A stretch of DNA of 64,000 nucleotides, taken from the IMG/VR virus record IMGVR_UViG_3300027519_000002. One strand, given 5' to 3'. The stretch is from a virus. The notes beneath the pieces are model-generated. The model ran no database searches and was not told where the DNA came from. It worked only from the letters and a program-made list of their open reading frames with translations. A program made the position numbers and the translations under genes. Below, one piece after another: positions 8,879 through 54,690 of the stretch (position 1 is the first letter of the stretch; each line of letters starts with the position of its first letter).

Positions 8879-8913
8879 CCGCAATACCCCCCAATCAGAG
8901 AGACACCCTCCTT

Positions 8914-11900: not shown

Positions 11901-14900
11901 TGATGGAACTGCGAAAGCCTTTGAGAATGAAGGTTTCGCTAAGAAGTTCGTACCTGCAAATAAGAAGACGCTAGTTCGTGCTGTACCTAACTTAATCAGT
12001 CAGTTAAAACGAGCCCCATCTACTGTACTGGCTTACGCAAAAGAATTTACTTCTCTTACTTCTAATCAGAAGGGCGCCATTAAGCACTTCACACAATTCG
12101 CAGAAGCGTTTGGAGAACGCCTTAATACGATCCCTAACTTAGAGGCGATTGCTAAGAACCCTGATTTCCACTTGTACACGCCATTAATGGAAGACGATGG
12201 ATTCTCTGAAACTGCCAAAGCTGGACTAGCAGCCGCTGCATACACGTGGTTAGCTAATGACGCTAAAGGTACACGTTACACTGATGCACGTGTATTAGCT
12301 CGCCGCTTTAACATCTCTGATAGCGATAAAGTACCTGCAAGCCTAGTAGGTGCATTGGCCAAAGATGGTCTACCCATCAACATGCTTTATAAAGCGTTAG
12401 GTCAAAACGCTGCATCTGCTTTAGGTATTCGTCTTAATGAAGAGTCAGCATCAACACGTGATATGAGTGTGTTGCAGTTACAACTAGGCCAGATGATTGT
12501 GGCCACTATGTCTGATATGGGCCTAATAGATGTTCGTCAACGCCCTATGGCTGATGTTATCCAAGCAGGTAATGCTGAAGTTCGTGAGAACGTTCTAATG
12601 CAGATTGGCCTGACTAAAGCTAAACAGGAAAACCTTACTCCTGAAGAGCTTGATAAAGTTATCGGTAAGATCCCATATACCACAGCAATCGTTAAGCACG
12701 ACCCAACTACAGAACCATTTGATGACACTGGCTTGAGTAATGAAGTACAGGAAATCATTGGAGCCAATGAAGATACTGACTACGTTATTGAGAACTTATT
12801 TGATACGCATACGGTAGACCGCGAACCCTCTCTTAAGCCTGGTGAAGGCCTTAAGGAAGGTGCACTTATGAAAGGTACTATGAAACAAGTATCTGAGCGC
12901 ACACGTGCAATGACAGCGGAGCAAGAGCAAAAAGCAATTACTATCGTCCAAGACAATGACTTGATCATGTCTATGTTAAACGTGGATGACAATGACGGCG
13001 AAGGCTCAGAACTTGAACGTGTACTAGGTATCGAATCTAAGAACCGACTTAAAGCAATGCCAAAGCGTATGCGCGATAGCGCGGAAGCGAAAGGTAATGG
13101 CCTACTTAACGAATGGAACAAGTACCAAACTTGGCGTAACAAACTAAGCCTGATGAAAAATGGCCTGTCTACTCCATTCTACTTGGGTATGGAAGTATGG
13201 AACTATGGTCGTTTTGGTTACACGAACCAAATGATTAATCCACAGACTTCTAAGATTCACCGTGCCTTGGTAGGTATGAAGAGCTGGAAGCAAACTGTTA
13301 GTGTCACTGATGGCCCTAAGATTCAAGCATTCTTACTTGGTGTGGCTCAAGGCTTAGACGTTGATATTGATAAGCAAACAGTAGATGACTCACTAGCTGC
13401 ACTTGACCCTATCATTAATGACGTAGATAACGTATTCAACAAGGGCGCGGTAGCTATCAACGAATTGAAAGCTAACGGTACAGAGTGGGCGCAGACTGAA
13501 GAAGGCAAAGCAGCACGCGAAGATGTTGTAGCTGCAGTAGAGAAGGGCAAACATAATGTTCACTCACTACATGCTCTAACTAACTTGGCTCGATACCTTG
13601 AAGCAAACGACAAAGGCCGAGAGCACTTTGATGCTGATATCTGGCTAGAAATCGATGGTATTACCAACGGTGTTGTAATCGGCTCAATCATTTTCGGTAA
13701 CGGTACAGCAAGCAATCTACGTGAAGAACTAGAAGCCGGCGGCATATTCTTCAATGAAAAGCGCGACTATGGTGAACATGCCTCCACTGAAGGTAATAAA
13801 GACTTCTACGAGCGACAAGCTGAGATCTGGCAACAGTACTTACAAGATGAAATTGTTGTAGCGAAACGCAACCCAGATAGTATTGAATCAAAGCGCCTAT
13901 TTGCCGCTGTACGCTTCTTTACGGGCTTGGACGTATTCTCAGACAAAGCACTAGAGATCAGCCGTAAGATGGCCAAGAGCCCACTTATGCAGAACGTATA
14001 CGGTGCAGGTAAGGCTTCACTATCTAATGACTTGGCTTCCGCAATCATAGACAACCTAGATACCTACATTGACAAGGTTATCAATGGTACTAAGGGCACT
14101 GATGAGCAAAAGGTTTACCTAGTAAACTACATGCTACAGAACATTGAGCCATTAGTTACTACTAAGAAAGGTAAGACATTCAATGTATTTAAGGGCGTAA
14201 ATCGCTTCAACACGGTAGAAGAAATTCGCGAGTCGGAGTACGACACGTTTGGTCTTAAAATCCTACAAGACAACATCAGTAAAGATTTTGCTTCACCGAT
14301 GCTTGATGCTATCGAAACACACTTCCAAGCGTTTAAATTCAACCGTGCTGTCTACATAGACAACATGAAGAACCACGCTGACGTATTTAAGTCACTGTAC
14401 GAAATGCGCGTTAAAGAAGAGAAAGAGCGCCTAGTTAGTGAAGGCCTTATCGATGCGACTGATGAAATACCTGAAGCAACGCGTAAAGCGATTGCGGATG
14501 AACTGCACCACATCATGCCTGCCGTTGAGAACCCTAACGGTGACGGTACATACGAGACTGACTTACAAGCCGTTAAAGTAGAAGATGTTGCTGCGCGTAC
14601 AGCCAAGGGCAATGCATACAGGGCTAACTTCAAACCAAACAGCGCTGTAAAGGTACAAGTACTTCAACCTAATGGTTCATACGCTAAAGGCTCATTAAAT
14701 ACTCTGTCTTCAACTGCGACTGTCCGTACCTTCGCTAATAACATCGGCCCGGGCGTTGGTGTTCAGAACATTCACGGCAACGATGCAGGAATTATTCAGC
14801 CGGTAGTAGCTAACTTCGACATCTTCAACGTTCACGATGGTATTCCAGCGGGACTTAACAACTATAAAGAAGTAGGTCAGGCCGCTAACCAAGCGTTTTT

Positions 14901-17900
14901 GGACAACGTATTCAATAACAACCCATTCAGTTACGCGAAAGATCTTATTGACCGTACAGTCGATGAAATCAATGAACGTAAAGAGCTTGGCGATATCTCA
15001 GCATCAACAGCTAAGACACTTATCGATAAGTTAACGAATACGACTACAAGCCAGTTCGGTAAAGATACTCGCGATGGCGGTAACGACTATGAGTACCTTA
15101 CTTCTAAGGCTGTCGAGACTTCCGATCGTCTAGGTGAGTTGCGTAATACTGTTGAATCGGTGCAACAATACTATTTGCCTGGGACAGGTGTTACCACTGA
15201 ACTTGGTAATAAGAACGATGAAGCCCGTAGCAATGGTACATACGAGGCACCTAAAGCCCCTGAGTTGTCAAAAGACGGAGCAACACAAACCGCATCGACT
15301 GTGCAGCGCACAAAGGAGATGCAACAGAAGAACCTAAAAGAAAACACTTCTGATACTGGCTTAAAAGATACCGCGCCATTCGCCACTACATTAGAAAAAG
15401 CATTGAAAGCAGGGGAGTCATTCTCTTCAGCATTTAAAGCCGCTGTAGATGCCACTGGCTCAAAGGGTTTCCACGTAAGCTTAATCAATAAGCTACTTGA
15501 GAACTTGCCTTCTGACTTTGAAGTGCAGCTTGTGAACAAGGACAGTGATAGTAAGTTGGTCGAGAAGATGAACGGTATTCGTGGCGCCCATATCAAAGGC
15601 ACAGGTAAACTGTTACTTAAGTCAACAGACTTCAGCAAGAACAGCCTAAACCTTGAAACCTTGGCTCACGAACTGCTTCACGTAGTTACTGCGAACACTA
15701 TTGACGCTGAACCTGATAATCCAGCCGTTAAAAAACTTGATGAATTGTTAAGAGAACTTCGCGGTAAGATCACTGACAGCAAGTTCCTACCTGCATTAGA
15801 AAACTCTAAAGAACTGGTAGCTTGGGGTTTGACCAATAAAGACTTCATCAGGAAGCTTAGAGCTACAAAGGTTAAGAGTAGACGTAACGGTAAGCTATTA
15901 GATGCGTTCACCGCATTTGCTGACGCACTAAAAGGCTTCTTTGGTGGTAAGTCACTTAAGAACGACTCTGCACTTAAGCAGTTAATTGAGCTGTCTGCTG
16001 CCGTAATGGAAGTGGATAGTAAGGTTAACCCTCGAAGCAATGACGCTAACATTGACCTGAACGCTCAACGCATCCAAAGAATGTCACCGGTAGAACTTAT
16101 TCGTGGTCTAGCTGCGCATGGCCAAACTACTGACGCACATACATCTCACTTGGTTTCAATCCAAGAAGAGATAGTAAACGTGTTCGCTGGCCCAATGGGT
16201 GCTGACCTTAAGTTAGAGGAAGAGGCGTTAGGTGATGACGTTGATCAATACCTTACCCACCTATCCAACGGTACAAGACCATTCGTAAGCGCAATCCAAA
16301 CAACATTTAACCTTACACCTCAAGAAGCTTATGTTGCGGAGCAACTGGAAGCGGTACTTGATAGTAAGATATTAGATGCAGGGTTCGTTAAGAATAGACT
16401 CGTTGATGTCTGGGAATCAGCTAGAAAGTCGCTTACATGGGAAAGCTTCCTACCTAACCCTGACTTCAAAGATGATGCGGCAGAAGTTGCCAAGGCTAAA
16501 GCCAAGTACGATTACTTGTTTAGTACTAAGAACCTTAACAAAGGTAACTATGCGTTCAGTGACTTAGCAGGTAAGTACGTAGACTCTCGCGCCTCTGACT
16601 TCCTTACTCGATTCGCAGCAGCTTCTGCTGTATCAAGTGAAGTTCGTGCAGCCCTAGAAGGCCTAGACGAGGTTACTACTGAAACCAATGGAAGTATTTG
16701 GTCACGCGCTAACAAGGCTGTCATGGATCTGTTTGGTCGCATGGAAGAGCTGGTTAACGGTAACTTACGTCACGGTGGTAACTTGCAAGAGAAGCAAGAC
16801 CAGTTACTTAACCGCATGGCTCAAACTAATCACCGTAATCGTCAAAAACTTAACCTACTGGAAAGGAAGAACCTTGAAGGTAAGACAGTACTTAACAAGT
16901 ACCTAAGCAAAGCTATTAACTCTGCACTAACTGGTGATTTCGTTACTTCACGTACAGAGTCTGAGCGCCCGTTTATAGCGGCAGCGGCTAACGTAGCGCA
17001 GTTGGTAGGTACAGGTACAGTCGGTACTATGACTGAGTTCTTACGTAAGCAGTTCAAAAAGGCTGACGAAGATAGACCTAGCCCACTAAACGAGGCGTTT
17101 ACCGAGGTATTCGGTAGAGGCCATCCTGATATGGATAGCGTTATAGACCTTACGCGTAAAGCCAATCGCGATATCGAGCAGCAACGTCAGTTCGGTAAAC
17201 AAGGCATGATGTCACTACTTCAGAGTAAGTTAGGCAAGTTAAGCGATGCAGCGTCTGAAAGCCTACACAAATCACTGCTTTCTACTGATGCCGGCCACCT
17301 ACTTGCTAACGGTTACGATATCAACCGAATCGACGAGTTCCTGACAAACGATGCAGCGCTAGACAACGAAATCAAAGATATCGAATCTCGTATATCTGGT
17401 TTCCAGCACAGCACTACTTACGTTAACCAAGCCAAAGCGCTTGCATACTATATGGTAACGGGTAACGCCACCTCTGATGTGTTGCACAAGAACGCTCACC
17501 AGATCGTTAACCTGTTTGGATTAAACCAGAAGGTAACTGACGATCGCAAAGCTGATGCAATCAAACTGGTAGACACACTCACTTCTCTTTACGCCATGAC
17601 GTACACTTCAAACGGCCATAAGAAAGCCGCTTCACAGGTTATTCGCGAGAACAACCAAAAGGACGAGAACGGCGTTGAGTTCATGCTTAAGCAGTACGAA
17701 CAGTTACGCCTAGATGCCCTTGAAGCTAATTTTGACGGCGAAGTGACGCAAATGACAAAAGGTTACACACCTGAGTCAGTTAATCCGCACATCACTCACG
17801 ACTATGCTTTGCCTGGGAGTGCGAAAGCTGAGTCTCTATATAAGCAGGGCTATAAGTTAATTGGGGCTGTTGGTCGCGATGAACGCCTAGACTCTTCAAA

Positions 17901-19569
17901 AGGTCTACTACTATTCGCAATTGAAGATGGCGGTATGGCTCGAAGAGTGACAGGTACAATGTCATTTACGGCAGGGGCTATGAAAGGTACTGAATGGATT
18001 GACTCTATGGAAAAAGCGGAGCAGCCAATCACGTACAAGGATAAGCACAAGATCTTAGGCGGCATTATCGGTACGGCTCGTAAGAACGCACTTGCACGTA
18101 TCAGTGACCCTAACTTTGACCCACGTAGTGTTGAGGTTGATGCTGGCCCAATGATGATTCCGACTTTCCACAATGACGGTTCAATAAAGACATTCCGTTA
18201 TGAAATGTCAGAAGCATTGCGTACAACCAGTCTTCAGAAGCGCTATAACGCTATCGAGGCATTGGCTACCATGCAGGGCAATGTCGTTGACAAACGAAAT
18301 ACCCGTGAACGTAACCGTGCGGTAGTAGACACGCTGGTAGAGCAGTACAACAATGACCCTGATAGGGCTTCAGCGGATTATGTACATATCGGCCCAAATG
18401 CGAAATCTGCATACCTCCGCGAATACTGGTCGCTATTACCTCACGACACACAAATGTACATTCGTGAAAAGACCGGCCTTAAGTTACCTATCAAGCGCGA
18501 GCTGTTACATGCAACACTAGGTTTCCGCAAACCAAGTCTATCTGATATCTTCAAGACTGACCGCGATGCACAAGGCATGGTTACTAGCCTAGTTCGCAAA
18601 GGTTTGGAGAACGTACTTAAGCCTGACCAGATTAGCGCACTAATCCGCGGTATCAAGAAAGGTGAAGATGGTTTCGCTGTTGCCACTGGTATTATTAAGG
18701 ACAACGTAGTTGTTAAGAACCTTTGGACTACCATGTTCAACATCGTTAGTAACTTCCTACACCTGCTTGGTAACGACATACCAGTTCGCCAAGCGTTTAG
18801 CGGCAGCGTGCGCGGTTATCGTGAAGCAGCTAAGTACAACAAGCTACGTCAACGTGCCTACGAAGTAGAGCGTGAAATGGCTATCTTGGATTCAGGTTCT
18901 GAACAGTACAGCAAGTTCCGCAATGAGGCTAACAAGCTACAAACGCTAATGGCCACAAGCCCAGTACATAAGCTAATGGAAGCTGGCTTGTTCCAGACTA
19001 TCGTAGAAGATATCGATAACACGCAAGACCCGTTCAGCTTTAAGAGCAAGACCGCACGCAAGATTGATGAGTGGTCCGACGCGAAGCGAGTAGGGCCACT
19101 GAATAAACTAGGCAAGTACCTTTACGTTACGCAAGACACGCAACTGTATAAGATGATGAACCAACCTATTCAGATGTCTGACTTTGCTGCACGTTTTGCC
19201 ATGTTTGAGTACTTAACTGAAATGGCGCCTGAAAAGCTGGATGATCAGACTGCGTTGAATACGGTCAGCGAACACTTCGTTAACTACGATATTCCTACCA
19301 GTCCACAGCTCCAGTGGCTTAACGACCACGGGTTGTTGATGTTCAGTAAGTATTACCTACGGATTCTACGTCCGGTATGGTCTACATTCGCTGAGAAGCC
19401 AGTGAGTACAATACTTTCTCTAATGATGACGCTAGACAATGCGCTAACATCACCAGTGGAGACAGTACTAAGTAGCACTATCTTCGATAAGATTACTAAC
19501 CCTATCTCAAGTGGTTTAGATGCTTGGGACGAACCATTGCCGCTGCAAGCAGTAGCAGAAATTCTTTAA
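8914..19569 (+). CDS. Virion-encapsidated giant RNA polymerase (N4 gp50-like vRNAP).
   Basis: 3551 aa. Central domain carries T7-like motifs: A-like FDADIWLEIDGITNG, B SRKMAKSPLMQNVYGAG (R-x3-K-x7-YG), C NVHDGIP. Last gene of the late operon, as in N4. Confidence 0.85.
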   Translation: MSNELSVQKTQMKRDRIQKRANELIGFDKFSQNVTAAAETARAAQDRIAAEEIRRAKISRDSWARNSELGTLSGQSKQLVNRLAQGGLQVLSEAVAGANNTEANRLLGKLDDRALRLAQRELNGETLSTEDSTYLDQQVDTSQFYLPKFGTSAHHMPSSSTAREVFAEALSNLKQAGNIDNALTKDTAVAKAFNPLNREEQSADIAKAYEDSGLSNEESLTSNPMALFNFAVDGAKSLVNNPASTIEYAAESLAGAASAAVPGLAVINSANYANDVRANNIDRKLQDENTSLTKADIEEANQEGALAGALDFAGDVVTARAAGITKALNKGKAPKTKSLARKATEESIKRPAKVAGSSVLESVTEGAQSAIEEDAFGEDFDLKTNGKDVLEAAVIGAGASGVTTGTGQAVQTAKDVTKAAPEVAKAIAESAKTKNQSNDDVEKARKVRTEQSVGVANETKDYSDIIEKSTAQVEESEKLDIEEVASTISRQFEAQSKDTTDPDSTEANESIEQLSGLWDAAVDRLDSVFSEIAQDTDKKKPELRQQASELGRAIDVIEAHREKISEAIARDNNTTEAITNLTNATERNEDFELNAQRILDTDAVSPDSISVEQMEALLKSDKWTPEERTRLENSFNAKQSMKVIEESRDIQSSSPNADLVSNDIFNGRSKGTYNKKDKGASGVKSYRQKVGHALRTGNIEAANKARDYLAAFADKHTKKSEAIQLALGAYARVGQNGNFTLQYNEQEQAAVDYLAREHKFEMKSGTPRIAPSIQREAEALRNVLTEVDGLIQAKRDVDPISTQSTQPTPTANTAPQATQEQPTATADASPTVTETSTPEATETVSNDTVEQPTTEATQPEAQTTPEENTQTVTEPEAETTTEESTESESEAVTDEEVGETNLEQALQESRAEEVRIDNQIEDLRKQLTDKEGITNQVIAELGLADKEAHSVKERTQINEAVRERQGELLTQIQNYKADQKAVRNSTRALEGQKANFDGTAKAFENEGFAKKFVPANKKTLVRAVPNLISQLKRAPSTVLAYAKEFTSLTSNQKGAIKHFTQFAEAFGERLNTIPNLEAIAKNPDFHLYTPLMEDDGFSETAKAGLAAAAYTWLANDAKGTRYTDARVLARRFNISDSDKVPASLVGALAKDGLPINMLYKALGQNAASALGIRLNEESASTRDMSVLQLQLGQMIVATMSDMGLIDVRQRPMADVIQAGNAEVRENVLMQIGLTKAKQENLTPEELDKVIGKIPYTTAIVKHDPTTEPFDDTGLSNEVQEIIGANEDTDYVIENLFDTHTVDREPSLKPGEGLKEGALMKGTMKQVSERTRAMTAEQEQKAITIVQDNDLIMSMLNVDDNDGEGSELERVLGIESKNRLKAMPKRMRDSAEAKGNGLLNEWNKYQTWRNKLSLMKNGLSTPFYLGMEVWNYGRFGYTNQMINPQTSKIHRALVGMKSWKQTVSVTDGPKIQAFLLGVAQGLDVDIDKQTVDDSLAALDPIINDVDNVFNKGAVAINELKANGTEWAQTEEGKAAREDVVAAVEKGKHNVHSLHALTNLARYLEANDKGREHFDADIWLEIDGITNGVVIGSIIFGNGTASNLREELEAGGIFFNEKRDYGEHASTEGNKDFYERQAEIWQQYLQDEIVVAKRNPDSIESKRLFAAVRFFTGLDVFSDKALEISRKMAKSPLMQNVYGAGKASLSNDLASAIIDNLDTYIDKVINGTKGTDEQKVYLVNYMLQNIEPLVTTKKGKTFNVFKGVNRFNTVEEIRESEYDTFGLKILQDNISKDFASPMLDAIETHFQAFKFNRAVYIDNMKNHADVFKSLYEMRVKEEKERLVSEGLIDATDEIPEATRKAIADELHHIMPAVENPNGDGTYETDLQAVKVEDVAARTAKGNAYRANFKPNSAVKVQVLQPNGSYAKGSLNTLSSTATVRTFANNIGPGVGVQNIHGNDAGIIQPVVANFDIFNVHDGIPAGLNNYKEVGQAANQAFLDNVFNNNPFSYAKDLIDRTVDEINERKELGDISASTAKTLIDKLTNTTTSQFGKDTRDGGNDYEYLTSKAVETSDRLGELRNTVESVQQYYLPGTGVTTELGNKNDEARSNGTYEAPKAPELSKDGATQTASTVQRTKEMQQKNLKENTSDTGLKDTAPFATTLEKALKAGESFSSAFKAAVDATGSKGFHVSLINKLLENLPSDFEVQLVNKDSDSKLVEKMNGIRGAHIKGTGKLLLKSTDFSKNSLNLETLAHELLHVVTANTIDAEPDNPAVKKLDELLRELRGKITDSKFLPALENSKELVAWGLTNKDFIRKLRATKVKSRRNGKLLDAFTAFADALKGFFGGKSLKNDSALKQLIELSAAVMEVDSKVNPRSNDANIDLNAQRIQRMSPVELIRGLAAHGQTTDAHTSHLVSIQEEIVNVFAGPMGADLKLEEEALGDDVDQYLTHLSNGTRPFVSAIQTTFNLTPQEAYVAEQLEAVLDSKILDAGFVKNRLVDVWESARKSLTWESFLPNPDFKDDAAEVAKAKAKYDYLFSTKNLNKGNYAFSDLAGKYVDSRASDFLTRFAAASAVSSEVRAALEGLDEVTTETNGSIWSRANKAVMDLFGRMEELVNGNLRHGGNLQEKQDQLLNRMAQTNHRNRQKLNLLERKNLEGKTVLNKYLSKAINSALTGDFVTSRTESERPFIAAAANVAQLVGTGTVGTMTEFLRKQFKKADEDRPSPLNEAFTEVFGRGHPDMDSVIDLTRKANRDIEQQRQFGKQGMMSLLQSKLGKLSDAASESLHKSLLSTDAGHLLANGYDINRIDEFLTNDAALDNEIKDIESRISGFQHSTTYVNQAKALAYYMVTGNATSDVLHKNAHQIVNLFGLNQKVTDDRKADAIKLVDTLTSLYAMTYTSNGHKKAASQVIRENNQKDENGVEFMLKQYEQLRLDALEANFDGEVTQMTKGYTPESVNPHITHDYALPGSAKAESLYKQGYKLIGAVGRDERLDSSKGLLLFAIEDGGMARRVTGTMSFTAGAMKGTEWIDSMEKAEQPITYKDKHKILGGIIGTARKNALARISDPNFDPRSVEVDAGPMMIPTFHNDGSIKTFRYEMSEALRTTSLQKRYNAIEALATMQGNVVDKRNTRERNRAVVDTLVEQYNNDPDRASADYVHIGPNAKSAYLREYWSLLPHDTQMYIREKTGLKLPIKRELLHATLGFRKPSLSDIFKTDRDAQGMVTSLVRKGLENVLKPDQISALIRGIKKGEDGFAVATGIIKDNVVVKNLWTTMFNIVSNFLHLLGNDIPVRQAFSGSVRGYREAAKYNKLRQRAYEVEREMAILDSGSEQYSKFRNEANKLQTLMATSPVHKLMEAGLFQTIVEDIDNTQDPFSFKSKTARKIDEWSDAKRVGPLNKLGKYLYVTQDTQLYKMMNQPIQMSDFAARFAMFEYLTEMAPEKLDDQTALNTVSEHFVNYDIPTSPQLQWLNDHGLLMFSKYYLRILRPVWSTFAEKPVSTILSLMMTLDNALTSPVETVLSSTIFDKITNPISSGLDAWDEPLPLQAVAEIL

Positions 19570-25982: not shown

Positions 25983-26018
25983 AAGCTTTCATCTCAGGCA
26001 AAGCCACAAGTTATTTAG

Positions 26019-26441
26019 TTAGGGGTAGGCACTCCAAATAGAGTTTGCCATGGCGTATTGCTTACATCTTACTAGGTAAGGGTTAAGTAAGAAGTACGTT
26101 ACGCCTTTCTTAGTAGCTAACCCTAGCTGTCTTTGATGGTCACGTTTAAGTCGAACCATAAGACCAGCTTTAACGATCTTACTTACATAACGACTGTGAA
26201 GTTTGTAGGCCGTAGATTTACGGTCTTGTACTGATTCAGGCAATTCATACGAACACACATTATTTACGTAATTGTGCTTGCGTTTAATATTCAGAAAAAG
26301 TACTTGAGCGGCAGGGGGTAAACCCACAAGTGTATCAAGTAGATCAGGTGCAAATGAATTATTGTCCGTGCTCAGTGGACTGATCATTGCGAAAGGTGCG
26401 TGTGTGTTGGTTGCTTGGGCTAAAGACAACATACTCTCCAT
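26019..26441 (-). CDS. Hypothetical protein bordering the attP-like noncoding region.
   Basis: 140-aa ORF with no recognisable motif. Confidence 0.4.
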   Translation of the reverse strand: MESMLSLAQATNTHAPFAMISPLSTDNNSFAPDLLDTLVGLPPAAQVLFLNIKRKHNYVNNVCSYELPESVQDRKSTAYKLHSRYVSKIVKAGLMVRLKRDHQRQLGLATKKGVTYFLLNPYLVRCKQYAMANSIWSAYP

Positions 26442-26571
26442 GAGGTTTTTATATGAAATAAAAATCCACTCACAAAGGTAGAATATTAATGCTGTAACTG
26501 ATTGATCTGCCTCAACTATAATTCCCTATATATAAATAAGATCAAATAGATGAAATAGACGAACCAATTTA

Positions 26572-26587
26572 CTGTACGGAGGTACAG
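26572..26587. promoter_or_regulatory. CTGTAC-GGAG-GTACAG hairpin. Fourth member of the short-loop hairpin family.
   Basis: Perfect 6-bp inverted repeat with a GGAG loop, in the noncoding region next to the integrase. Confidence 0.3.
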
Positions 26588-27091
26588 CAGATACTACTAA
26601 TATAACTTACCTAACTAAATTCCGTTTCAATGTGATCCGTGCGTAAATCACTGACGTAAATCAGTACCGCGTGGTTGCATCGACCGAACTATTTTTATTA
26701 TTAGTGTTCGGATTTTTTGACATCGACTCCCTCTGTCTTTGTCATCTCAACATTAAGTAAATTTATACTTAAGTATGAAATCGGAATGTATAGGAACGTG
26801 AAAACGTTTTCCACCTATTTTGTAAGAAAACTTGAATGAACGTTCAAGAAAAAGTCAGTCATGTCACTATTGTCATCATTGGAACAAAAGCCAATTAAGT
26901 CACTTTCTGGTGGCTAGGTAACTTCAACTTCAAGTTAACGTGACTCATAACTGCACTGATAGTGCGTTTTGTCCTCCGAAAATTTGTGACCAGATTGTGA
27001 CTATGAATAGGCACTTTTAGGCTCATCTAGGCTTAGTACTTTTTTAAAGAAGTAAGCGTACATAAGCCTCTGATATATATAGATATTTTAC

Positions 27092-27125
27092 CCACAGGTT
27101 CAAGTCCGGCCCCGGGCACCACTAT
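27092..27125 (+). other. attP-like core: tRNA 3' end from the T-loop onward (GGTTCAAGTCC-GGC-CCCGGGC-A-CCA).
   Basis: Canonical T-loop, a 7-nt acceptor 3' strand, discriminator and CCA, but no matching 5' half. It lies 22 nt from the integrase stop inside a 700-bp noncoding AT-rich region. Confidence 0.45.
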
Positions 27126-27146
27126 TTTCCTAATAAAATCAACAAC

Positions 27147-28400
27147 TTACGCAGATTTCATTTTTTCATGTGACTCAGATGTGACCATATCGATAAGATT
27201 CGATACTCGTTCACTCATTCCTGGCATCTCATCATCCATCCATCTGCCATAATGTTTTTCGAACATCATAATGGAAGTGTGACCCATTTCTCGCATGATC
27301 CATCTTTCAGGTGCACCAGTCGTTAATAATCTACTAGCGAATGTGTGACGAGCCTGATTAGGTCCACGATATCGAATGTTGAGTTTCTTAAGAAACGCTT
27401 CGAAGAATCTCTCTGCTACACGTGCACTATTTATATAAGGCTCTAGTGTGAATGTGTCAGGGAATACGAAAGTGAGACTTTCCTTCTTCTTTCTACGTTT
27501 ATCTGATTGAGTAACTTCAACCGTATGCTTACGGTTCATCTTCGAGATACTTTGTTGAGCCAATAATATCTCTTTAGCTTGTCTGGTTAAGTGGACGGTT
27601 CTAACACTGCCTTTTGTCTTTGGTACTTTATAGTCACCACGAACAACAGCACGCTTAATGTAAACCTCACCTTTAACTAGGTCGATATCTTCCCAAGCCA
27701 AACAAAGCCATTCAGAAATACGTACACCAGTGTGACAAGCGAAGAGGAACGCGTTGCGTTCTGACTCGCGTGAAGTTTCAGCTTTACCTATTCTAATCAA
27801 CTCTTCAGTTGTGAATGGGTCAGCATTGTCTTCAGAGTCGCGCTCTAAGTTCTTAACATGCTCTAGTGGATTGAACTCGATTACTCGGTCAGCCATAGCA
27901 TCTTTAAAGGCACCACGTAACGGTGTAAGAATATCGTTGATAGTCTTGTTCGTGAGCTGGCCTAGATCTCTACTGCGCCAACGTTTCACTTCTGACTGCA
28001 TCAATGAGTCTATGCGCCTGTTACCAAACTTAGGCTTAAGGTAGTTCTCTACGGTACTCTTGTAGCCGCGAAAGGTTTTAGGTGCATATTCAGATTCCTT
28101 GGTTTCAAGCCAAGTATCTAATGCTTCAGCAACAGTAGGTATTATTGCTGCTGGCTCAAACAGATCTGCTTTCTTAGAGTCAGGGAAGTGGTTGCGGTAA
28201 CTGAATATCTTGGTCGCAATTTCGTGAAGTACTACGTTCCTTTTATTAAAGGCCCATTTCACATTAGCTTGCGTAGCTTTAAGGTTCTTGAGAGTTTCAC
28301 GACAACGTACACCTTTATAGTAGAAATCTATAACAATAGATTCCCCGCGTAAGTGTACGCCATCGTAGTCCTTTACAAATTCACTAAGCGGCTTCGCCAT
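27147..28400 (-). CDS. int: Tyrosine recombinase (phage integrase).
   Basis: Catalytic-domain signatures GVRISE (Arg), HTFASRLL..GAPERWIMREMGHTS (H-x-x-R) and FEKHYGRW (Tyr). N-terminal arm-type DNA-binding region. Adjacent attP-like tRNA fragment and xis-like gene. Confidence 0.85.
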   Translation of the reverse strand: MAKPLSEFVKDYDGVHLRGESIVIDFYYKGVRCRETLKNLKATQANVKWAFNKRNVVLHEIATKIFSYRNHFPDSKKADLFEPAAIIPTVAEALDTWLETKESEYAPKTFRGYKSTVENYLKPKFGNRRIDSLMQSEVKRWRSRDLGQLTNKTINDILTPLRGAFKDAMADRVIEFNPLEHVKNLERDSEDNADPFTTEELIRIGKAETSRESERNAFLFACHTGVRISEWLCLAWEDIDLVKGEVYIKRAVVRGDYKVPKTKGSVRTVHLTRQAKEILLAQQSISKMNRKHTVEVTQSDKRRKKKESLTFVFPDTFTLEPYINSARVAERFFEAFLKKLNIRYRGPNQARHTFASRLLTTGAPERWIMREMGHTSIMMFEKHYGRWMDDEMPGMSERVSNLIDMVTSESHEKMKSA

Positions 28401-28590
28401 CTAATTCCTCAAACAGTTCATCAAGTCTTTCATAATGATACATGATCACACCGTGAACTTTCTTCCAATGAATGCCTTCTTGTAATTTACCTGCAAGTCT
28501 GCGCTTTTGGAGATTGTGGTAAGTAAGGCCTTTCAACTCTTCTAATACTTTTGGGTAAACCCAACCTAGCTTAATGTATGTAGCTTTCAT
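28384..28590 (-). CDS. xis: Excisionase/AlpA-like small DNA-binding protein.
   Basis: 68 aa, basic, winged-helix-like (LQKRRLAGKLQEGIHWKKVHGVIMYHYERLDELFE). Overlaps the integrase start by 17 nt, the classic xis-int arrangement. Confidence 0.45.
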   Translation of the reverse strand: MKATYIKLGWVYPKVLEELKGLTYHNLQKRRLAGKLQEGIHWKKVHGVIMYHYERLDELFEELDGEAA

Positions 28591-28612
28591 ATAATGCGCC
28601 CCTTATTGCGCT

Positions 28613-28894
28613 ATGAGGAAAATAATGAGTAATAAAAGAACTGGCTACAAAAGAGTAGCCAACGTATTTAGCTGGATAGGTACAGCATGGGTCTTAGGTG
28701 CTGGAATCGTTACACTGATTATTCAGCTTTTCGATATAAGCGGGTTTCGTCAAATGGGTGCCGATGCCGCACTTCCACTAACACTAGTTTGTTTAGTGGG
28801 TGCAGCAATCGTCTACTCGATTCCCCAAGGACTGTACCTATTAGGTTGCTATCTTGCGGATGGTTTCAAACCAGATGACAGCAAACAGTGGTAG
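28613..28894 (+). CDS. Two-TM membrane protein encoded divergently from xis/int.
   Basis: 93 aa, two hydrophobic helices. It is the only plus-strand gene inside the minus-strand block. Confidence 0.45.
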   Translation: MRKIMSNKRTGYKRVANVFSWIGTAWVLGAGIVTLIIQLFDISGFRQMGADAALPLTLVCLVGAAIVYSIPQGLYLLGCYLADGFKPDDSKQW

Positions 28895-28896
28895 GT

Positions 28897-29094
28897 TTAA
28901 AGTACAGCTTTAAGTAAATCTGCCTGTTCATGCGTCAGTTCAATAGTAACTGGCGTAAGAACGTCTTTACCTGCAATACTGACACTCACACCTTCGTAGT
29001 TAGCCCAACCGGTACGTTGTACTAGGCAACCATCGTTTTCAGCGTAGCGTTGTGTCACTTCAACATCAATTGTCGTTACTTCTACTTCGCTCAT
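28897..29094 (-). CDS. Small hypothetical protein. Start reassigned to MSEVEV, making an ATGA overlap with the ligase stop.
   Basis: The 28897..29136 ORF has an in-frame ATG at 29094 that overlaps TGA of the upstream gene. Confidence 0.35.
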   Translation of the reverse strand: MSEVEVTTIDVEVTQRYAENDGCLVQRTGWANYEGVSVSIAGKDVLTPVTIELTHEQADLLKAVL

Positions 29095-31505: not shown

Positions 31506-32360
31506 TTATCGGCCTCTGATGTCCATGATAGGCATGGAACCTTCACCCATAATGGTAGCTGGAAGCTTACCATCCCAATTTTGGGCTTCTGTAAGTTTGA
31601 TGATCAGCGGGTTATCACGTAGTGCTTTCGCCTTAGCTTCAATGGCTGCTGCTTCAGCTAGACCTTTAAGTCGAATGGCATCAGCTTCTGCTTTAGCAAT
31701 GGCCTCAATACCTTCTGCACGCGCTTTGTCAGTGTTAACGCCACGCTGTGCTTCAAGACCTTGACGAGCAAGCTTATGCTCTTCTGCTGCTGCTAGGTTC
31801 TTTTCAGTTTGCTTGGTTTCAATTGAGGCCAAGTACTTCTTAGGTAGAGTGATGTTCTCAATCTGCAAGTCACCCACTTTAATCGGGTAGCCGGCCATTT
31901 CTTCTAACAGAAGACCTTCAATCTGCATGATTGCAGTACTACGGTCTTGAATAAGCTGTTCTGCTTCAAAGCGAGGGATAACTGCTTTAACTGCGCTACG
32001 TAGGCGAGGGTCTAAAATACGTGCTTCGAACTGGGCTAGGCCACCGTATTCTTTATACATGCTCAACGCTGATTTGCGGTCAACCGTCCAGTTAACTGCT
32101 ACTGCAACATTAACCGGCATTTGTTCTGCGGTAGATGAAGGCATCAGTTCTTTGTTCTGACGGGTACGCACTTCAATTTCTTCAACCGTTTCAACGAAAG
32201 GTACTTTGAAATGCAGACCAGGGTTTACTTGTTCTTTGGCTTCACCGAAGTTTTTGACGATACCTACGTGACCTTCTTCAATAGTGTAGGCGGCAAGGAA
32301 CATAGTAATAGCGATAAATAGGGCAGCAATGCCACCTAAGATAGATTTAATTGGAATCAA
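31506..32360 (-). CDS. SPFH/band-7 (prohibitin/HflC-like) membrane protein.
   Basis: N-terminal TM (GGIAALFIAITMFLAAY), then EEGHVGIVKNFGE, and a C-terminal Ala/Glu-rich coiled-coil (AEADAIRLKGLAEAAAIEAKAKAL). Confidence 0.65.
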   Translation of the reverse strand: MIPIKSILGGIAALFIAITMFLAAYTIEEGHVGIVKNFGEAKEQVNPGLHFKVPFVETVEEIEVRTRQNKELMPSSTAEQMPVNVAVAVNWTVDRKSALSMYKEYGGLAQFEARILDPRLRSAVKAVIPRFEAEQLIQDRSTAIMQIEGLLLEEMAGYPIKVGDLQIENITLPKKYLASIETKQTEKNLAAAEEHKLARQGLEAQRGVNTDKARAEGIEAIAKAEADAIRLKGLAEAAAIEAKAKALRDNPLIIKLTEAQNWDGKLPATIMGEGSMPIMDIRGR

Positions 32361-33710: not shown

Positions 33711-34003
33711 CTATCTCTCTCAAAGGTTGTGGCTTCTATGTTGGGGAATGGTTTACGTAGAGTTCTGATCTGCTCCACAAGTACACCATCCACATCTCTT
33801 TCAAACATTACGGACTTAAAGCCCATACTGTAAAAAATGTTGTTCAGTGCCTTGTAGTCGTAGTAAGTGAACCTACCGCGTAAGGCGAATACACAAACTA
33901 GTTGTTTAGTGGGGTAGGACACATTGAATGTGCAGTACTCCCTACGCCATACCTGCTGAACGTTCTGTACCTCGAAGCTTACGTCTTTATGAGCGCAGTT
34001 CAT
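33707..34003 (-). CDS. Hypothetical protein.
   Basis: 98-aa ORF. Confidence 0.35.
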   Translation of the reverse strand: MNCAHKDVSFEVQNVQQVWRREYCTFNVSYPTKQLVCVFALRGRFTYYDYKALNNIFYSMGFKSVMFERDVDGVLVEQIRTLRKPFPNIEATTFERDR

Positions 34004-34481
34004 GGTAAGTACCGTTTAACAGGTCTTGGTATTGGTCAATGGGAACCAAGGCCCATTTGGGTTTTCTTTTGTGTGTGATCACCATGGTCACATCTTCGTC
34101 TTCGGGAGCAATGCCCTGACGTAACGTGTCGAAAGGGATAGTGGGTGCGTCAATACCTAGACGAGGAATGTCACGAATTTTGTGTTGGGTGATCTTGGCG
34201 TAAACCATCTGCTCACTAATGCCTAGCGCTTCTGCCATCTCAGGAGGGCTGTAACACTCTTTCCAAAGGACTTTAAGGCTTTCTATGATCTGCTCTTCAC
34301 GCTTCTCTGAGCCGCTTGGCAGCTTCCAAAGCTTACGTCTACTCCATATCGTGTCTTTGGTGACACCAAATATGAATGCGATTTCTGAGTCAGATTTACA
34401 TTTGTTAATGAGGTCTTCGATCTCGGCTCTATCCGATTCGAAAGGTGGTTTGCGGAGAATAGGGGGGAATGTTCTGTTCAT
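33987..34481 (-). CDS. Putative DNA-binding protein with two HTH-like segments.
   Basis: 164 aa, containing SEIAFIFGVTKDTIWSRRK and PEMAEALGISEQMVYAKI. Confidence 0.35.
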   Translation of the reverse strand: MNRTFPPILRKPPFESDRAEIEDLINKCKSDSEIAFIFGVTKDTIWSRRKLWKLPSGSEKREEQIIESLKVLWKECYSPPEMAEALGISEQMVYAKITQHKIRDIPRLGIDAPTIPFDTLRQGIAPEDEDVTMVITHKRKPKWALVPIDQYQDLLNGTYHELRS

Positions 34482-35307: not shown

Positions 35308-37884
35308 TTACGCAGCTTCTGCTTCTGTTAAAAAGTCTTGGATAACTGCTTTGATAGTGCTCTGGTCGGCACCATTTGGTAGTTCGATTTCGTCTTTCCA
35401 AGTCGGGTAGAACAAGGATAGTTCCCCACCTAATCCAACACTCTCATGTTGAATTTCAGGGAGTTCTTGCCATTCCATACATTCCACTAGGTTGCTGTTC
35501 AGCCACTCAACTGCCGCTAGGTCGTCGCGTACTAAGAAGTACTGGGCATCGTGGATATGGGCTACTGGTAGAATGTCGTATCGGAAGTCTGAATCGAATG
35601 TGCGCTCTTGCAGCTCAATGCCAGCGCGATTGTTAAGCAAGCCGTAAGATTGACCAAGTGCGTTACCTGCGGTACGCCCTTCTGATTTAGCTTCGTAAGG
35701 GGTTCTTGATGAGCCCATCAAACATTGCTTAATCACTGGCGTTCTTACTCTTAGACCGAAAGCGACTGTGACGTAACCGTCGATAGCAGCCTGGTCAATC
35801 TTCTCTTGAACCCAATTATCTGACCACTCATATAAGCGGTGATAGTTGCGCTCAATAGACTGTGCTTCTTCTTTGGTTAGTCCAAGGCCCATCAATCCGT
35901 GGTATGTCCCACCATAGGTGAGTAGGAATGTTGGTGACTTAGACTTCTGCCTGAACTCAGGGTATTTCTTCTTAATGCTGTTAATCGACTCAACGGAGTT
36001 GGGGTCAATGTCGAGCATGTTGTTTCCAAAGTACCCGTAAGCCCGTAGACAGTGCCCATCGTAACCATCGGTATAAACCTTTAGCTTCTCTGGGTCTTTA
36101 GTGGTTAAGGCTGAAATGCGGTCTTCTAGTGAAGCAAAGTCTGCTCCCATGAATACCCAACCTTCCGGTGCTGCAAAGCACGACTTAACCAGTTTTGCAT
36201 ACGTTGCCCCTGTTGAGGGAATGTTCTGCATGTTCGGGCCTGACGAACTAAGTCGGCCTGATACTGTACCGCCAATGTTAAAGTTACCGTGCAAGTAATA
36301 GTGCCCGTCAGACTTAAGAACGGCACCTTCAAATGCTTTGATAAACGTACCTAAGATCTTATCTGCGTCATAGAACGCAACACAGGTCTTAAGTAATTCT
36401 TTAATGTCTTCACGCTCGGTGACTGCGTAAAGTTTCATTAGCGTTTCACCACCACAGGCTCCAGCACCACTATCGGTCTTATCGATAATGTCGAACTGTA
36501 GGTAGTCATACAGGAAGCGCTGCATCATCGGATTAGAGTTAGGGTTGAAGACGATGTGTTCAAAGTCTTCTATTGGTTTAACCTTTGTCTTCAGTTCCGC
36601 GTTGCGCTTGTTCATTGCTGCTTCACGTTCTAGGTACACGAACTGTTCAATGTCAGGGTGTGACTGAAGCACCTTGTGACAACGAGCAATCTCTTTCTCT
36701 AGCACGTTACGTGCATATTTGACCTGCGCCATATCAATAGGCATACCGGTCAATTCCATCTGCAGTACGACTTTCACGGAAGGTTTTAACATCTTCTCGT
36801 AAACGTCTACCTGCTTGTCTTTGACCATAGTTGGGTAGTGCTTATTGTGTACGTACCAAGTAGCTAAAGTGTCCTTGAGCTGGTATACCTCAAGTTGCTC
36901 TTTGGTTAGCTTGGTAATGTCTTTCACATCTTCGGCAAAGTTGCCGGTGAACTCATGCGATTGGTCTTTCAAGCCAAGGCTGTTACCTGCACAAGAGTTT
37001 GTGGCCACGTAAGTAATTAACTTAGTGTCATCGAAATTACGGGTGAGTACTTCGATCCCTTGCTGCTTACCAATCTCGTCAAGAAGGCCACTCATAAACA
37101 GTGTATTTATGAGGATCTTCATATCGTAGTTGGCGTTGTGATAGATGCACTTACCGCGGTAAGTAAAGAAGAAGTCTTTAAGTAGGCCTCTCACTTTGCT
37201 GTTAGGTTCGTGGTAATCATCACACCAGATAACGACACCGTTATGTTGATCCCAGGCAAAGCCAATAGTCACAACACCGGTTTCCCAGAACTTAAGGCTC
37301 AGCGTTTCGGTGTCAACCGTTAACGCGTCATATTGCTTAAGGTCTTGGAGTACAGAATAGACCTCATTAGGGTCACGTATGTATTTCGCTGAGTGGATGA
37401 TGTTAGTACCAATTTCTTCGTACTGTCCTTTACTCACATCAGCTAGGGTTTTGAGGCCCATATCCAGTTTGTCTTTCAGGTCTGGGTTATAGAATAGGGC
37501 AGAGTAGTTCACACCAAGTATGACCTGCATATCCGTGTAACCATCTACGATGCACGGTAACGCATAGCCGTGGTGCGGCTCTGCTTTCTTCTCACCTGTT
37601 AATACTTTGAAGTACTCAGCATCAGGTACATATAAGTACTTAACGCCTTGTTCTTTAAGTATCGGCATTAGGTCTTGTAGGTAAGCACGCATTACCTTTA
37701 CAGGGGCTTTCTTACCTTTCGGGCCGTATACCAAGTCAAACGCTATTACGTCCTTTGGTTTAATACCAAGGGAACGCAATGGCTGAATGTAGTTTGTCTC
37801 CATTTGAGACTGCTTAAGTGACGAGCTCTTAATGAGAATCGCCACCTTAAACTCTGTGTTATCTCTGAAGATAATGTGTTGCAT
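35308..37884 (-). CDS. Family A DNA polymerase with 3'-5' exonuclease domain.
   Basis: Exo I DTETLS, Exo II YHNANYDMK, pol motif B KSPTFLLTYGG, motif C VAHIHDAQY. 858 aa. Confidence 0.85.
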   Translation of the reverse strand: MQHIIFRDNTEFKVAILIKSSSLKQSQMETNYIQPLRSLGIKPKDVIAFDLVYGPKGKKAPVKVMRAYLQDLMPILKEQGVKYLYVPDAEYFKVLTGEKKAEPHHGYALPCIVDGYTDMQVILGVNYSALFYNPDLKDKLDMGLKTLADVSKGQYEEIGTNIIHSAKYIRDPNEVYSVLQDLKQYDALTVDTETLSLKFWETGVVTIGFAWDQHNGVVIWCDDYHEPNSKVRGLLKDFFFTYRGKCIYHNANYDMKILINTLFMSGLLDEIGKQQGIEVLTRNFDDTKLITYVATNSCAGNSLGLKDQSHEFTGNFAEDVKDITKLTKEQLEVYQLKDTLATWYVHNKHYPTMVKDKQVDVYEKMLKPSVKVVLQMELTGMPIDMAQVKYARNVLEKEIARCHKVLQSHPDIEQFVYLEREAAMNKRNAELKTKVKPIEDFEHIVFNPNSNPMMQRFLYDYLQFDIIDKTDSGAGACGGETLMKLYAVTEREDIKELLKTCVAFYDADKILGTFIKAFEGAVLKSDGHYYLHGNFNIGGTVSGRLSSSGPNMQNIPSTGATYAKLVKSCFAAPEGWVFMGADFASLEDRISALTTKDPEKLKVYTDGYDGHCLRAYGYFGNNMLDIDPNSVESINSIKKKYPEFRQKSKSPTFLLTYGGTYHGLMGLGLTKEEAQSIERNYHRLYEWSDNWVQEKIDQAAIDGYVTVAFGLRVRTPVIKQCLMGSSRTPYEAKSEGRTAGNALGQSYGLLNNRAGIELQERTFDSDFRYDILPVAHIHDAQYFLVRDDLAAVEWLNSNLVECMEWQELPEIQHESVGLGGELSLFYPTWKDEIELPNGADQSTIKAVIQDFLTEAEAA

Positions 37885-43005: not shown

Positions 43006-43274
43006 GGGTCAACTGCTCCCCAGTTTAGTGACACGACACGAACTGTATCTTCGTCTTCGTCATCGGTCGGTATGACCTTCATGCCTGACTCGCTGTAGGA
43101 TGAGTCGGTTACTGCGGCAAAGTCTACTTCGTCTACAAGTATTGCTTGTTGCGTTCCGTTGCGATCACCATAAGACACGTTTGATACAACGAACATATCG
43201 TCTTCAAAGTTGTCTAGTTTTTCTTTAAGTTCTTTTACGGTGAGGCAACTTTCTTGTAATTTTTCTAATAACAT
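42999..43274 (-). CDS. Small acidic hypothetical protein.
   Basis: 91-aa ORF. Confidence 0.35.
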   Translation of the reverse strand: MLLEKLQESCLTVKELKEKLDNFEDDMFVVSNVSYGDRNGTQQAILVDEVDFAAVTDSSYSESGMKVIPTDDEDEDTVRVVSLNWGAVDPW

Positions 43275-43798
43275 TATGCTTCCTTTGCTTGAGGATGGAG
43301 TTCAATGAATTGATCAGTGAAGCTGTAAGTCTTGTCCTCGTTAACAGTGATGTAACCGCGTTCACGGGCTACCAGTAGCATTAAGCTCACAGTGGAACGG
43401 GACAGGTTTAACTCTTGCGCTATGCCTGTTGTACGTACTTTTCTGTTCTTACGCTTTACAGCAATAGACAAGCGGTATGGGTGCTCTATGATCATCAACT
43501 CAGTTCTGTCATAGCGCTCAATAGTACTTTCACTTCGCTCGTCAGGACGGGTAGTACGCTGCAGAGTGTGACGCAATACTGATTCTTTACGGGATTGTAC
43601 GCGCTCTTCAATGACCTTCTGGTCTGCGCCTTCTTTGATTTCACCACTGATGATAAATGCTTCGCCAGATGTAGTGTCAAAGGCAGTTAGCAGGGTCACA
43701 ACATCATCACGTAATTCACGTAATGTAATGGTTCGGCCTACTAACTCTGATAATTTGGTGGTCTTAAGACCTTTAATGCTGCTCACTTCATGCTCCAA
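43274..43798 (-). CDS. Hypothetical protein with a C-terminal HTH.
   Basis: 174 aa, containing LNLSRSTVSLMLLVARERGYITV. Confidence 0.4.
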   Translation of the reverse strand: MEHEVSSIKGLKTTKLSELVGRTITLRELRDDVVTLLTAFDTTSGEAFIISGEIKEGADQKVIEERVQSRKESVLRHTLQRTTRPDERSESTIERYDRTELMIIEHPYRLSIAVKRKNRKVRTTGIAQELNLSRSTVSLMLLVARERGYITVNEDKTYSFTDQFIELHPQAKEA

Positions 43799-46218: not shown

Positions 46219-46641
46219 CTACTGTATTCTTTGAATTTCTTCGTTTAGATAAAGCGTACCGCGAGTACACTTAATACCGGATGGGTAGGGTATAGCTACC
46301 TCGCGCTCAACGTTTGTAGGCCAGCTCTCAGGCATTTTGCCGCTACCTACTATCTTGACCTTCTCTCCAACCTTCCAAGGGCTTCTGGCTTCCCAGAATG
46401 CCGCTTTACCCATGTAGTGTAGGGCAACAAGTTGGCAGGTAGATCTAACTTCGAATAGCTGTCTTAGCTTTGATGTCATGGCTTTGACTGCTGCTTCAGT
46501 AATGTGAAGTTCTTCTGACATTTCACGGCAGGTTCTGCCTATGATTACTAGGTCATAAACGCGCTGCTGCGCTCTAGTTAAAGTCATAGCTGTAACCACA
46601 TTCTTCGTAGTCAACGGAGCCTCTGGTATTAAAACCAGCAC
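46219..46641 (-). CDS. LuxR/GerE-type HTH transcription regulator.
   Basis: LTRAQQRVYDLVIIGRTCREMSEELHITEAAVKAMTSKLRQ is a classic LuxR C-terminal-type HTH. The true start is possibly the internal MTLTRAQQ. Confidence 0.5.
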   Translation of the reverse strand: MLVLIPEAPLTTKNVVTAMTLTRAQQRVYDLVIIGRTCREMSEELHITEAAVKAMTSKLRQLFEVRSTCQLVALHYMGKAAFWEARSPWKVGEKVKIVGSGKMPESWPTNVEREVAIPYPSGIKCTRGTLYLNEEIQRIQ

Positions 46642-54129: not shown

Positions 54130-54177
54130 TGTCAAAATCCTCATAGTTGACGTTAATTCAATGGAACACCATTTGTT

Positions 54178-54197
54178 CCACTAATGTGCGTTAGCAC
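54178..54197 (-). promoter_or_regulatory. Early-promoter-like motif, copy 3 (CCACTAAT-GTGC-GTTA-GCAC).
   Basis: Conserved motif about 50 nt upstream of ATG 54129. Confidence 0.4.
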
Positions 54198-54660: not shown

Positions 54661-54690
54661 ACTTCGATATTCCCTTGTTCGTTATAATGT

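Follow-up and report, generated by a model that had tools for sequence, protein, structure and literature searches.

The N4-like phages are textbook lytic viruses and are popular candidates for therapy and biocontrol, partly from their assumed inability to lysogenise. Here we describe an integration module in an N4-like phage genome, IMG/VR virus record IMGVR_UViG_3300027519_000002, of which one stretch of 64,000 nucleotides (the window) was analysed. The module comprises a phage attachment site (attP) with a 25-bp core equal to the 3′ end of a tRNA-Leu(UAA) gene, a tyrosine integrase gene (int) and an excisionase gene (xis). We have little doubt that 25983-28896 functions as an integration/excision module and that its carrier is a temperate Alteromonas phage of the N4-like (Schitoviridae-type) group. 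An earlier note on this DNA, made from the sequence without database searches, started from the view that N4-like phages are strictly virulent. That premise is dated, as integrated proviruses were reported in 2023 (Zheng et al., mSystems, PMC10654107).

Zheng et al. mined 342 N4-like genomes and found 40 integrated proviruses, 28 of them from Moraxella; 54 of the genomes (14 marine) carried integrase, transposase or diversity-generating retroelement genes. The authors considered some N4-like viruses lysogenic and added the caveat of possible chimeric assembly. Their proviruses resemble the present case in that N4-like genomes with an integrase lie inside bacterial contigs. The study differs in being a hallmark-gene survey of mainly Moraxella proviruses, and neither an attP nor an excisionase nor an Alteromonas or Salinimonas provirus appears in its text. 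Cultured Alteromonas schitoviruses have been described as integrase-free and lytic, and in the literature that we searched no paper described a defined attP or a tRNA target for N4-like phages. Because of the 2023 report, the novelty claimed for the present locus is lowered. What is new is that attP, attB, attL and attR are resolved to the base, that target tRNA and module limits are established, and that one lysogen is a complete genome. The locus supplies anatomy absent from the survey, namely the attP core, the tRNA-Leu target, the xis-int operon, candidate arm and IHF sites and the boundaries, and matched free, integrated and empty-site sequences are available for it.

The T7-like phages are another podovirus lineage with its own RNA polymerase (RNAP) that was long held to be obligately lytic and has members with integrases. 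Integrating pelagiphages, which are T7-like podoviruses, are discussed with heavy use of the terms tRNA and attP (bioRxiv 10.1101/410191), and Pseudomonas phage LUZ100 is presented as a temperate member of a 'strictly lytic' T7-like family (PMC10134795). T7-like phages make their RNAP in the infected cell, from an early gene that the host transcribes, whereas the early programme of N4-like phages depends on an RNAP brought in by the virion; the regulatory problem of lysogeny and induction therefore differs between the two groups.

At the level of the recombination system, the locus is most readily compared with the temperate Pseudomonas phage phiCTX (NC_003278) and with lambda. The integrases of phiCTX and of the window both have Arm-DNA-bind_2, SAM-like and catalytic domains with Asn for the His of the HxxR box. 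In both phages attP lies just 3′ of int and is the reverse complement of a tRNA 3′ end. For phiCTX, the annotation places repeats and IHF sites around the core, and their putative counterparts here are pairs of TGTGAC motifs and an IHF-like site. Unlike the 74-kb N4-like podovirus with its virion RNAP, phiCTX is a 35-kb P2-like myovirus. Its annotated attP is 30 bp long and lies ~118 nt from the int stop, compared with a 25-bp core at 25 nt here. The target of phiCTX is tRNA-Ser. A DUF1233-type Xis is encoded upstream of int in the window, where no P2-type C/Cox switch was found. With lambda the locus has in common an arm-binding, heterobivalent integrase, a small overlapping Xis gene upstream, an AT-rich attP, predicted arm sites in both arms and an IHF consensus match. 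It differs in using a tRNA 3′ end where lambda uses an intergenic attB, and in a P′ arm that overlaps the coding end of int; the sites proposed here are predicted rather than footprinted.

Integration at the 3′ end of tRNA-Leu(UAA)

The attP core, GGTTCAAGTCCGGCCCCGGGCACCA, is located at 27097-27121 on the plus strand, antiparallel to int, and 25 nt (27122-27146) lie between its CCA and the int stop codon. It covers the T-loop, the 3′ strand of the T-stem, the 3′ acceptor strand, the discriminator and the CCA, and matches, at 25 of 25 positions, the 3′ end of the tRNA-Leu(UAA) found in Alteromonas and in many further marine Gammaproteobacteria. Two figures in the earlier note have to be corrected: it had placed the tRNA-like segment at 27092-27125 and 22 nt past the int stop. 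Its idea that a tRNA 3′ end without a 5′ half forms the attP core of a phage integrating at a host tRNA gene was borne out. ARAGORN detected no complete tRNA over the 64-kb window, so the tRNA fragment stands without its 5′ half, and an Rfam scan of the region at E values up to 10 gave only chance matches (lncRNA, snoRNA), with no tRNA or tmRNA model. The chance expectation of the 25-mer in a 21-kb locus was 0.00. The 25-mer is not a chance match, because it is identical throughout to tRNA-Leu(UAA) and its edges are the exact recombination breakpoints described below.

An exact look-up of the integrase protein returned nine contigs. The free form was represented by a 73.6-kb MEGAHIT k141 contig (L001; loci retrieved in the searches are given L numbers) which was 100% identical to the window over 21 kb. 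The surroundings of int were the same as in the window in this contig and in L003, and all three carry attP in the order P arm, core, P′ arm. As L001 is a MEGAHIT k141 contig, its attP join was not made by the 25-bp repeat. In L002 and L004, a complete tRNA-Leu(UAA) and then tRNA-Cys directly followed int, and L005 ended within the tRNA-Leu copy. These three loci are attR, with the 5′ part of tRNA-Leu, the core, and the P′ arm with int.

L002 and L126, the latter found through the exonuclease gene, are the two ends of one contig (CACSIH010000243.1, 92,167 bp) of Alteromonas alvinellae assembly GCA_902705805.1. Beyond the tRNAs, L002 contained pgsA, uvrC and a uvrY-like gene, with a 10-nt N-masked gap at the expected place of tRNA-Gly (read by eye, no ARAGORN call). 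L126 is attL, in which the phage P arm and the 25-mer were followed by host DTW, AhpC, rhodanese, SIR2 and LysE genes. The two 25-mers on this contig, at 8778-8802 and 82786-82810, are 74,008 bp apart, which agrees with the length of the free genome. Prophages containing int were also present in two Logan assemblies, so that, together with the S. marina chromosome considered below, prophages flanked by the duplicated segment were found as the earlier note had anticipated.

The unoccupied site attB, tRNA-core-host, was found in seven genomes, five of Alteromonas, one of Aestuariibacter, plus L119 (L071, L072, L074, L077, L080, L063 and L119). In the empty sites of Aestuariibacter (L080) and A. 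facilis (L063), the tRNA was 0.9-1.8 kb from the SIR2/LysE genes, in the same order. The BLAST homology of every integrated copy to the window stopped exactly at 27097 or 27121. Identity to the window was 94-99% in L002, L004, L005 and L126, and 66-70% in the more distant prophages of S. marina (L128) and Alteromonas sp. Nap_26 (L129-L131). Integration has taken place at exactly the 25-bp core with the tRNA restored, and free attP coexists with attL and attR.

The host is not a Vibrio, as had been suggested in the earlier note. The flanks of the prophage were 81-85% identical to Alteromonas sp. IB21 and A. portus, NCBI protein names point to A. alvinellae, and the hosts of the group are Alteromonadaceae; Vibrio was rejected as host on these flanks.

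A junction of this kind could also arise if an assembler joined phage and host contigs through the 25-bp tRNA segment that they have in common. Some of the assemblies are indeed metagenomic or Logan contigs, and the chimeric-assembly caveat was raised for some proviruses in PMC10654107 itself. Such a join is hardly conceivable on the present data. Both junctions, with flanks syntenic to the empty sites, are on one contig of a named Alteromonas assembly, an independent complete chromosome (S. marina) shows the same arrangement, and the int-tRNA junction occurs in at least five independent samples. The MEGAHIT k of 141, taken from the contig name, exceeds the 25-bp repeat, as does the k of the Logan assembler, which we take to be 31. 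The prophage variant is 94-97% identical to the free form and is therefore not the same molecule wrongly joined. Genuine integration through the 25-bp core is, in our judgement, very likely to occur.

The integrase would recombine the attP core with its identical counterpart at the 3′ end of the host tRNA-Leu(UAA) gene, the last one of a pgsA-tRNA-Gly-Cys-Leu cluster. The whole genome of ~74 kb would be inserted, the tRNA being rebuilt from the phage copy, with a 25-bp direct repeat left at each end.

A different trace was seen at the same tRNA gene in A. portus. A 57-nt partial 3′ copy of tRNA-Leu(UAA) without a 5′ half was located at 5085-5141 of L053, ~1.25 kb from the DTW-side genes. This locus was tried as a carrier of a related int and rejected since it had no int similarity; it is a different element or a remnant. 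From this copy, the tRNA-Leu(UAA) locus looks like an integration hotspot.

The integrase, the excisionase and the arms of attP

The 417-aa product of int (27147-28400, minus strand) is a tyrosine integrase of the phiCTX type with an arm-binding N-terminus, a SAM-like core-binding domain and a catalytic domain. As the earlier note proposed from the letters alone, it is a tyrosine recombinase: Arm-DNA-bind_2 (PF12167) matched residues 13-76 at 66.7 bits (cut-off 22), Phage_int_SAM_3 scored 38.8 bits, above its gathering score, and Phage_integrase (PF00589) matched residues 199-384 at 71.4 bits (cut-off 27.1). The protein belongs to the integrase family phrog_1 of PHROG (E 4.7e-58), and phiCTX-type integrases were among its best matches in the phage collection. 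Identity to phiCTX Int was 36% over 385 aa (E 2e-78), and the motifs RGPNQxRH and KHYxKW are present in both proteins.

Alignment gave the catalytic set R227, K261, R351, H374 and Y384. R227 corresponds to the residue exchanged in the R225K structure of Tn1549 Int, and H374 falls on the MGH motif. In an alignment of 18 family members K261, R351, H352, H374, H383, Y384 and W387 were invariant, and K261, R351 and Y384 recur in phiCTX Int. The claim of an intact R...HxxR...Y signature held for these five catalytic residues, which are all kept, and failed for the first His of the HxxR box, where the protein has Asn (N348-Q-A-R351). Position 348 is N or S across the integrase subfamily. The Asn is a variant of the subfamily and not inactivating, because the active phiCTX Int has N there too (RGPNQCRH).

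The xis gene (28384-28590, minus strand) lies directly upstream of int and, in the manner of a xis-int operon, overlaps its start by 17 nt. The 68-aa product, correctly recognised earlier as excisionase-like, matched Pfam PF06806 (DUF1233, 'putative excisionase') with a score of 26.3 bits (cut-off 22), and the PHROG excisionase families phrog_9668 and phrog_539. An xis gene accompanied int in every N4-like prophage and in the non-N4 temperate contigs considered below. By analogy, this Xis would act as the recombination directionality factor and direct the reverse, excisive reaction. A terminator-like hairpin with a T run was detected by consensus scan upstream of xis, at 28640-28663 on the minus strand, and could insulate xis-int from the upstream replication-gene transcript. 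A sigma-70 promoter scan of the integration module gave fewer sites than shuffled sequence and was uninformative.

To the left of the core, the P arm (26442-27096, 655 bp) is AT-rich and non-coding, with a GC dip and no ORF (open reading frame) with a family match. It contains a tandem pair, TGTGACC/TGTGACT, starting at 26985 and 26996, that is, 11 nt apart and 101-112 nt left of the core. A similar pair, TGTGACT/TGTGACC, is found in the P′ arm inside the 3′ end of int (27169-27185, plus strand), with starts at 27169 and 27180, again 11 nt apart, 48-59 nt right of the core; further copies begin at 27278 and 27344. The plus strand of the 64-kb window contains 18 copies of TGTGAC, seven of which fell within 26985-27731. 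A match to the IHF consensus, WATCARNNNNTTR, was read by eye at 27063-27075 on the minus strand. The P-arm pair and the IHF-like block were conserved in the ~66%-identical S. marina prophage, in which the surrounding sequence was not, and TGTGAC was also present at the equivalent P′ place in the S. marina and Nap_26 prophages.

The TGTGAC pairs are good candidates for arm-type sites of Int, and the 27063-27075 block for an IHF bend. If so, Int probably bridges the core and the TGTGAC pairs of both arms with the help of IHF, in the manner of lambda and phiCTX.

The module in related N4-like genomes

The closest homologues of Int were all from Alteromonadaceae. In the complete chromosome of S. 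marina (CP064795.1), int was 72% identical and abutted tRNA-Leu(UAA)-Cys-Gly-pgsA-uvrC (L128). It is the last gene of an N4-like series of helicase, DNA polymerase, Thy1, Band_7, ligase, Xis and Int. The far end of this prophage, ~72.0 kb away, had the homologue of orf140 (a small gene beside the P arm, described below), exonuclease, primase and the virion RNAP (vRNAP), and a second copy of the tRNA 3′ end precedes this orf140-side end (L175).

The two tRNA copies of S. marina are not quite alike. The tRNA-Leu copy of attR (L128 11278-11363) reads GGCCCGGGC, with three C, while the attL copy (L175 8625-8652) and all other genomes read GGCCCCGGGC. The missing C is either a homopolymer sequencing error or the mark of a rebuilt tRNA-Leu(UAA) with a defective acceptor stem. 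Outside attL (L175 3078-8088), the chromosome contains a glycosyltransferase gene, an Acyl_transf_3/SGNH acyltransferase gene, tRNA-Tyr and a 316-aa ORF, which has a long repeated stretch in common with a 233-aa ORF upstream. The Alteromonas empty sites are without these flank genes, which indicates further variable DNA at the locus.

A second relative, the N4-like prophage of Alteromonas sp. Nap_26 (metagenome scaffolds), had an int 61% identical and was integrated at tRNA-Leu(GAG) beside secG (L129 11276-11361 and L257 ~8892-8917). Its core is 26 bp, GGGTTCAAGTCCCGCTTTCCGCACCA, and at the far end the 26-bp copy of the tRNA 3′ end (attL) was followed by the native terminator. As the target is a different tRNA-Leu, the integrase has been retargeted within the clade, switching between two tRNA-Leu genes. 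In addition, int (57% identical) and orf140/exonuclease formed the two opposite extremes of a 75-kb IMG/VR provirus.

Distant N4-like genomes, with exonucleases 45-51% identical, had neither int nor xis. In the three of these int-less relatives that have the ligase (L136, L138 and L161), it was followed by exonuclease ~390 nt later; the adjacency of the two genes identifies the module as an insert, with boundaries at about 25983 and 28896. The module is an insertion relative to the int-less N4-like genomes, conserved in the clade with diverged and retargeted integrases.

The earlier note had offered, besides integration of the phage, the capture of an integrative element by an N4-like phage. 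In its strict form, this would be a recent capture of a foreign cassette by one lytic N4-like phage, with the cassette as non-functional cargo. The GC content is consistent with a foreign source, being 0.38-0.42 across 26-29 kb compared with ~0.45 elsewhere, and the closest Int relatives are chromosomal in Alteromonadaceae. Moreover, one of the best 80 Int relatives in IMG/VR was N4-like, while ten others had the same xis-int pair in non-N4 contigs of 13-45 kb, which points to an origin of the pair from ordinary temperate phages of the same hosts. However, at least four diverged N4-like lineages (integrases 57-72% identical), all of them seen integrated, carry the cassette at one and the same place in the genome. 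The acquisition therefore predates the clade and was not a single capture, and we attach next to no probability to recent capture as inert cargo. An ancestral, functional module of a temperate N4-like clade agrees with this distribution.

A metagenome-assembled genome of Neptuniibacter (JBFPDX010000883.1) carried a more distant N4-like element, with an exonuclease 55% identical, in a 198-kb contig by a complete tRNA-Leu(UAA) (L176 8042-8128). This tRNA flanks the exonuclease end of the element and points its 5′ end at the phage, an arrangement at odds with that in Alteromonas. Pseudomonas phage Hali (80.6 kb, int 34.5% identical) was tried as a cultured N4-like phage with an integrase and rejected, because it proved to be an ordinary temperate phage whose annotation includes a repressor.

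The N4-like genome and the control of lysogeny

The hallmarks of N4 that had been recognised in the window were confirmed. The vRNAP ORF (8914-19569) encodes 3551 aa, and the identical gene in L001 matched PF21867 (vRNAP_dom_2), PF21894 (N4_RNAP_helical) and, weakly, PF21624. RNAPII (50187-51374) matched PF00940 (RNA_pol) and the PHROG 'N4-like RNA polymerase'. The genome has the heterodimeric T7-like RNAPII and the gp42-gp45-like replication genes in N4 order, among them the exonuclease (phrog_2139, NCBI name 'N4 gp42-like') and the gp43-like primase (phrog_2135); AAA_24 of Pfam and a single-stranded DNA-binding protein of PHROG were also among the N4 replication-type matches. The capsid gene was 71-77% identical in DNA to those of N4-like Vibrio, Klebsiella and Salmonella phages. 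No deposited phage was close: the best match, pVa5 at 71%, was in the capsid gene, and when 26000-29000 was searched for near-identical DNA among 50,697 phage records, nothing matched. The ~10 kb of the genome outside the window hold tail fibre and portal genes (structural).

Early transcription of N4 needs the RNAP injected from the virion. Several points weigh against a functional module in a temperate phage. As the early genes depend on the virion RNAP, a prophage would be silent by default, with no obvious start for the lytic programme. No CI/Cro, HTH_3/XRE, Peptidase_S24/LexA-like or antirepressor family was found in 58 further ORFs of the window (Pfam and PHROGs, with the best 25 of 43 PHROG families) or in the ~10 kb outside it. 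The free-form contigs may come from virions or from excised circles. Finally, the arm sites were assigned from clustering and one comparison, and the P′ copies are in coding sequence, where coding constraint could account for their conservation.

The integrated copies might be grounded, defective prophages, the free phage being lytic only and int and xis accidental or abortive. The lack of a recognisable immunity repressor or antirepressor and the reliance on the virion RNAP are what such dead-end integration would predict, and the C missing from the S. marina attR tRNA relative to attL may be decay, if it is not a sequencing error. The prophages themselves do not look decayed. They are full length, 74.0 and ~72 kb compared with 73.6 kb for the free form, and their vRNAP genes, which both continue past the edge of the locus retrieved, are long and apparently intact, with 3625 aa in the A. 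alvinellae prophage and a called length of at least 2746 aa in that of S. marina. Integrated and free copies are 94-100% identical, implying recent interconversion. Diverged members have kept an excisionase along with int (57-70% identity for xis, 61-72% for int), and the retargeting of the integrase to another tRNA-Leu indicates selection on integration. We consequently regard dead-end integration as improbable, and a full, inducible temperate cycle, in which prophages would return to infectious virions, as likely, with less assurance than integration itself. Two of the lysogens are named strains, one with a complete genome, so that lysogeny of a virion-RNAP phage is directly testable. For therapy and biocontrol, membership of the N4-like group together with the absence of a known repressor is not proof of a strictly lytic lifestyle.

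One candidate for a regulator is orf140 (26019-26441, minus strand), a small clade-specific gene by the P arm. Its product had no match in Pfam, PHROG or NCBIfam. Seven homologues were found in 5.8 billion proteins, all in the integrating N4-like clade, and the int-less N4-like relatives do not have it. The AlphaFold2 model (pLDDT 70.8, confident core at residues 31-120) is winged-helix-like, and its best Foldseek matches in the PDB were ArsR/SmtB/MarR/CodY winged-helix repressors at E values of 0.08 or higher, which are not significant. With low confidence, the model suggests that orf140 may be a regulator or repressor.

The clade might then lysogenise without a switch of the lambda type. If the early promoters are read only by the virion RNAP, an integrated copy would be silent by default, and recombination at attP would cut the replication cluster between int and orf140/exonuclease; orf140, promoters for the host RNAP, or both could give the lysis-lysogeny decision once the cell is infected, and an unconventional induction independent of vRNAP. 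We put this scheme forward as a speculative one, and somewhat doubtful.

Apart from orf140, three weak DNA-binding candidates were all that the genome yielded, namely a GerE/LuxR-type helix-turn-helix at 46219-46641 (minus strand, E 2.9e-5), a winged-helix match to Fe_dep_repress at 43274-43798 (minus strand, 8.2e-5) and an HTH_17 match at 33987-34481 (minus strand, 9.5e-5).

ORF93 (28613-28894, plus strand) is divergent from xis and encodes a small protein with no significant family match and two transmembrane helices, read by eye. The window and the A. alvinellae prophage both have the gene, but 57 nt take its place in L004 and L005, which are otherwise 98-99% identical, and in S. marina an unrelated 151-aa ORF stands there. 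ORF93 is variable cargo (a 'moron') in a slot beside xis, possibly expressed from the prophage and possibly concerned with superinfection exclusion.

Some further variation was seen elsewhere in these genomes. A Band_7/SPFH-domain gene (31506-32360, minus strand) is present in the window, in L004 and in the S. marina prophage and is missing from the A. alvinellae variant (L002). A low-GC stretch at 54001-56000 (0.378-0.386) contains many small minus-strand ORFs without a family match and is presumably the early region. DNA polymerase A, which is one 858-aa gene in the window (35308-37884), is split in the Nap_26 prophage into parts of 550 aa and 281 aa by an HNH/NUMOD4 homing-endonuclease ORF (L129 1423-4841).

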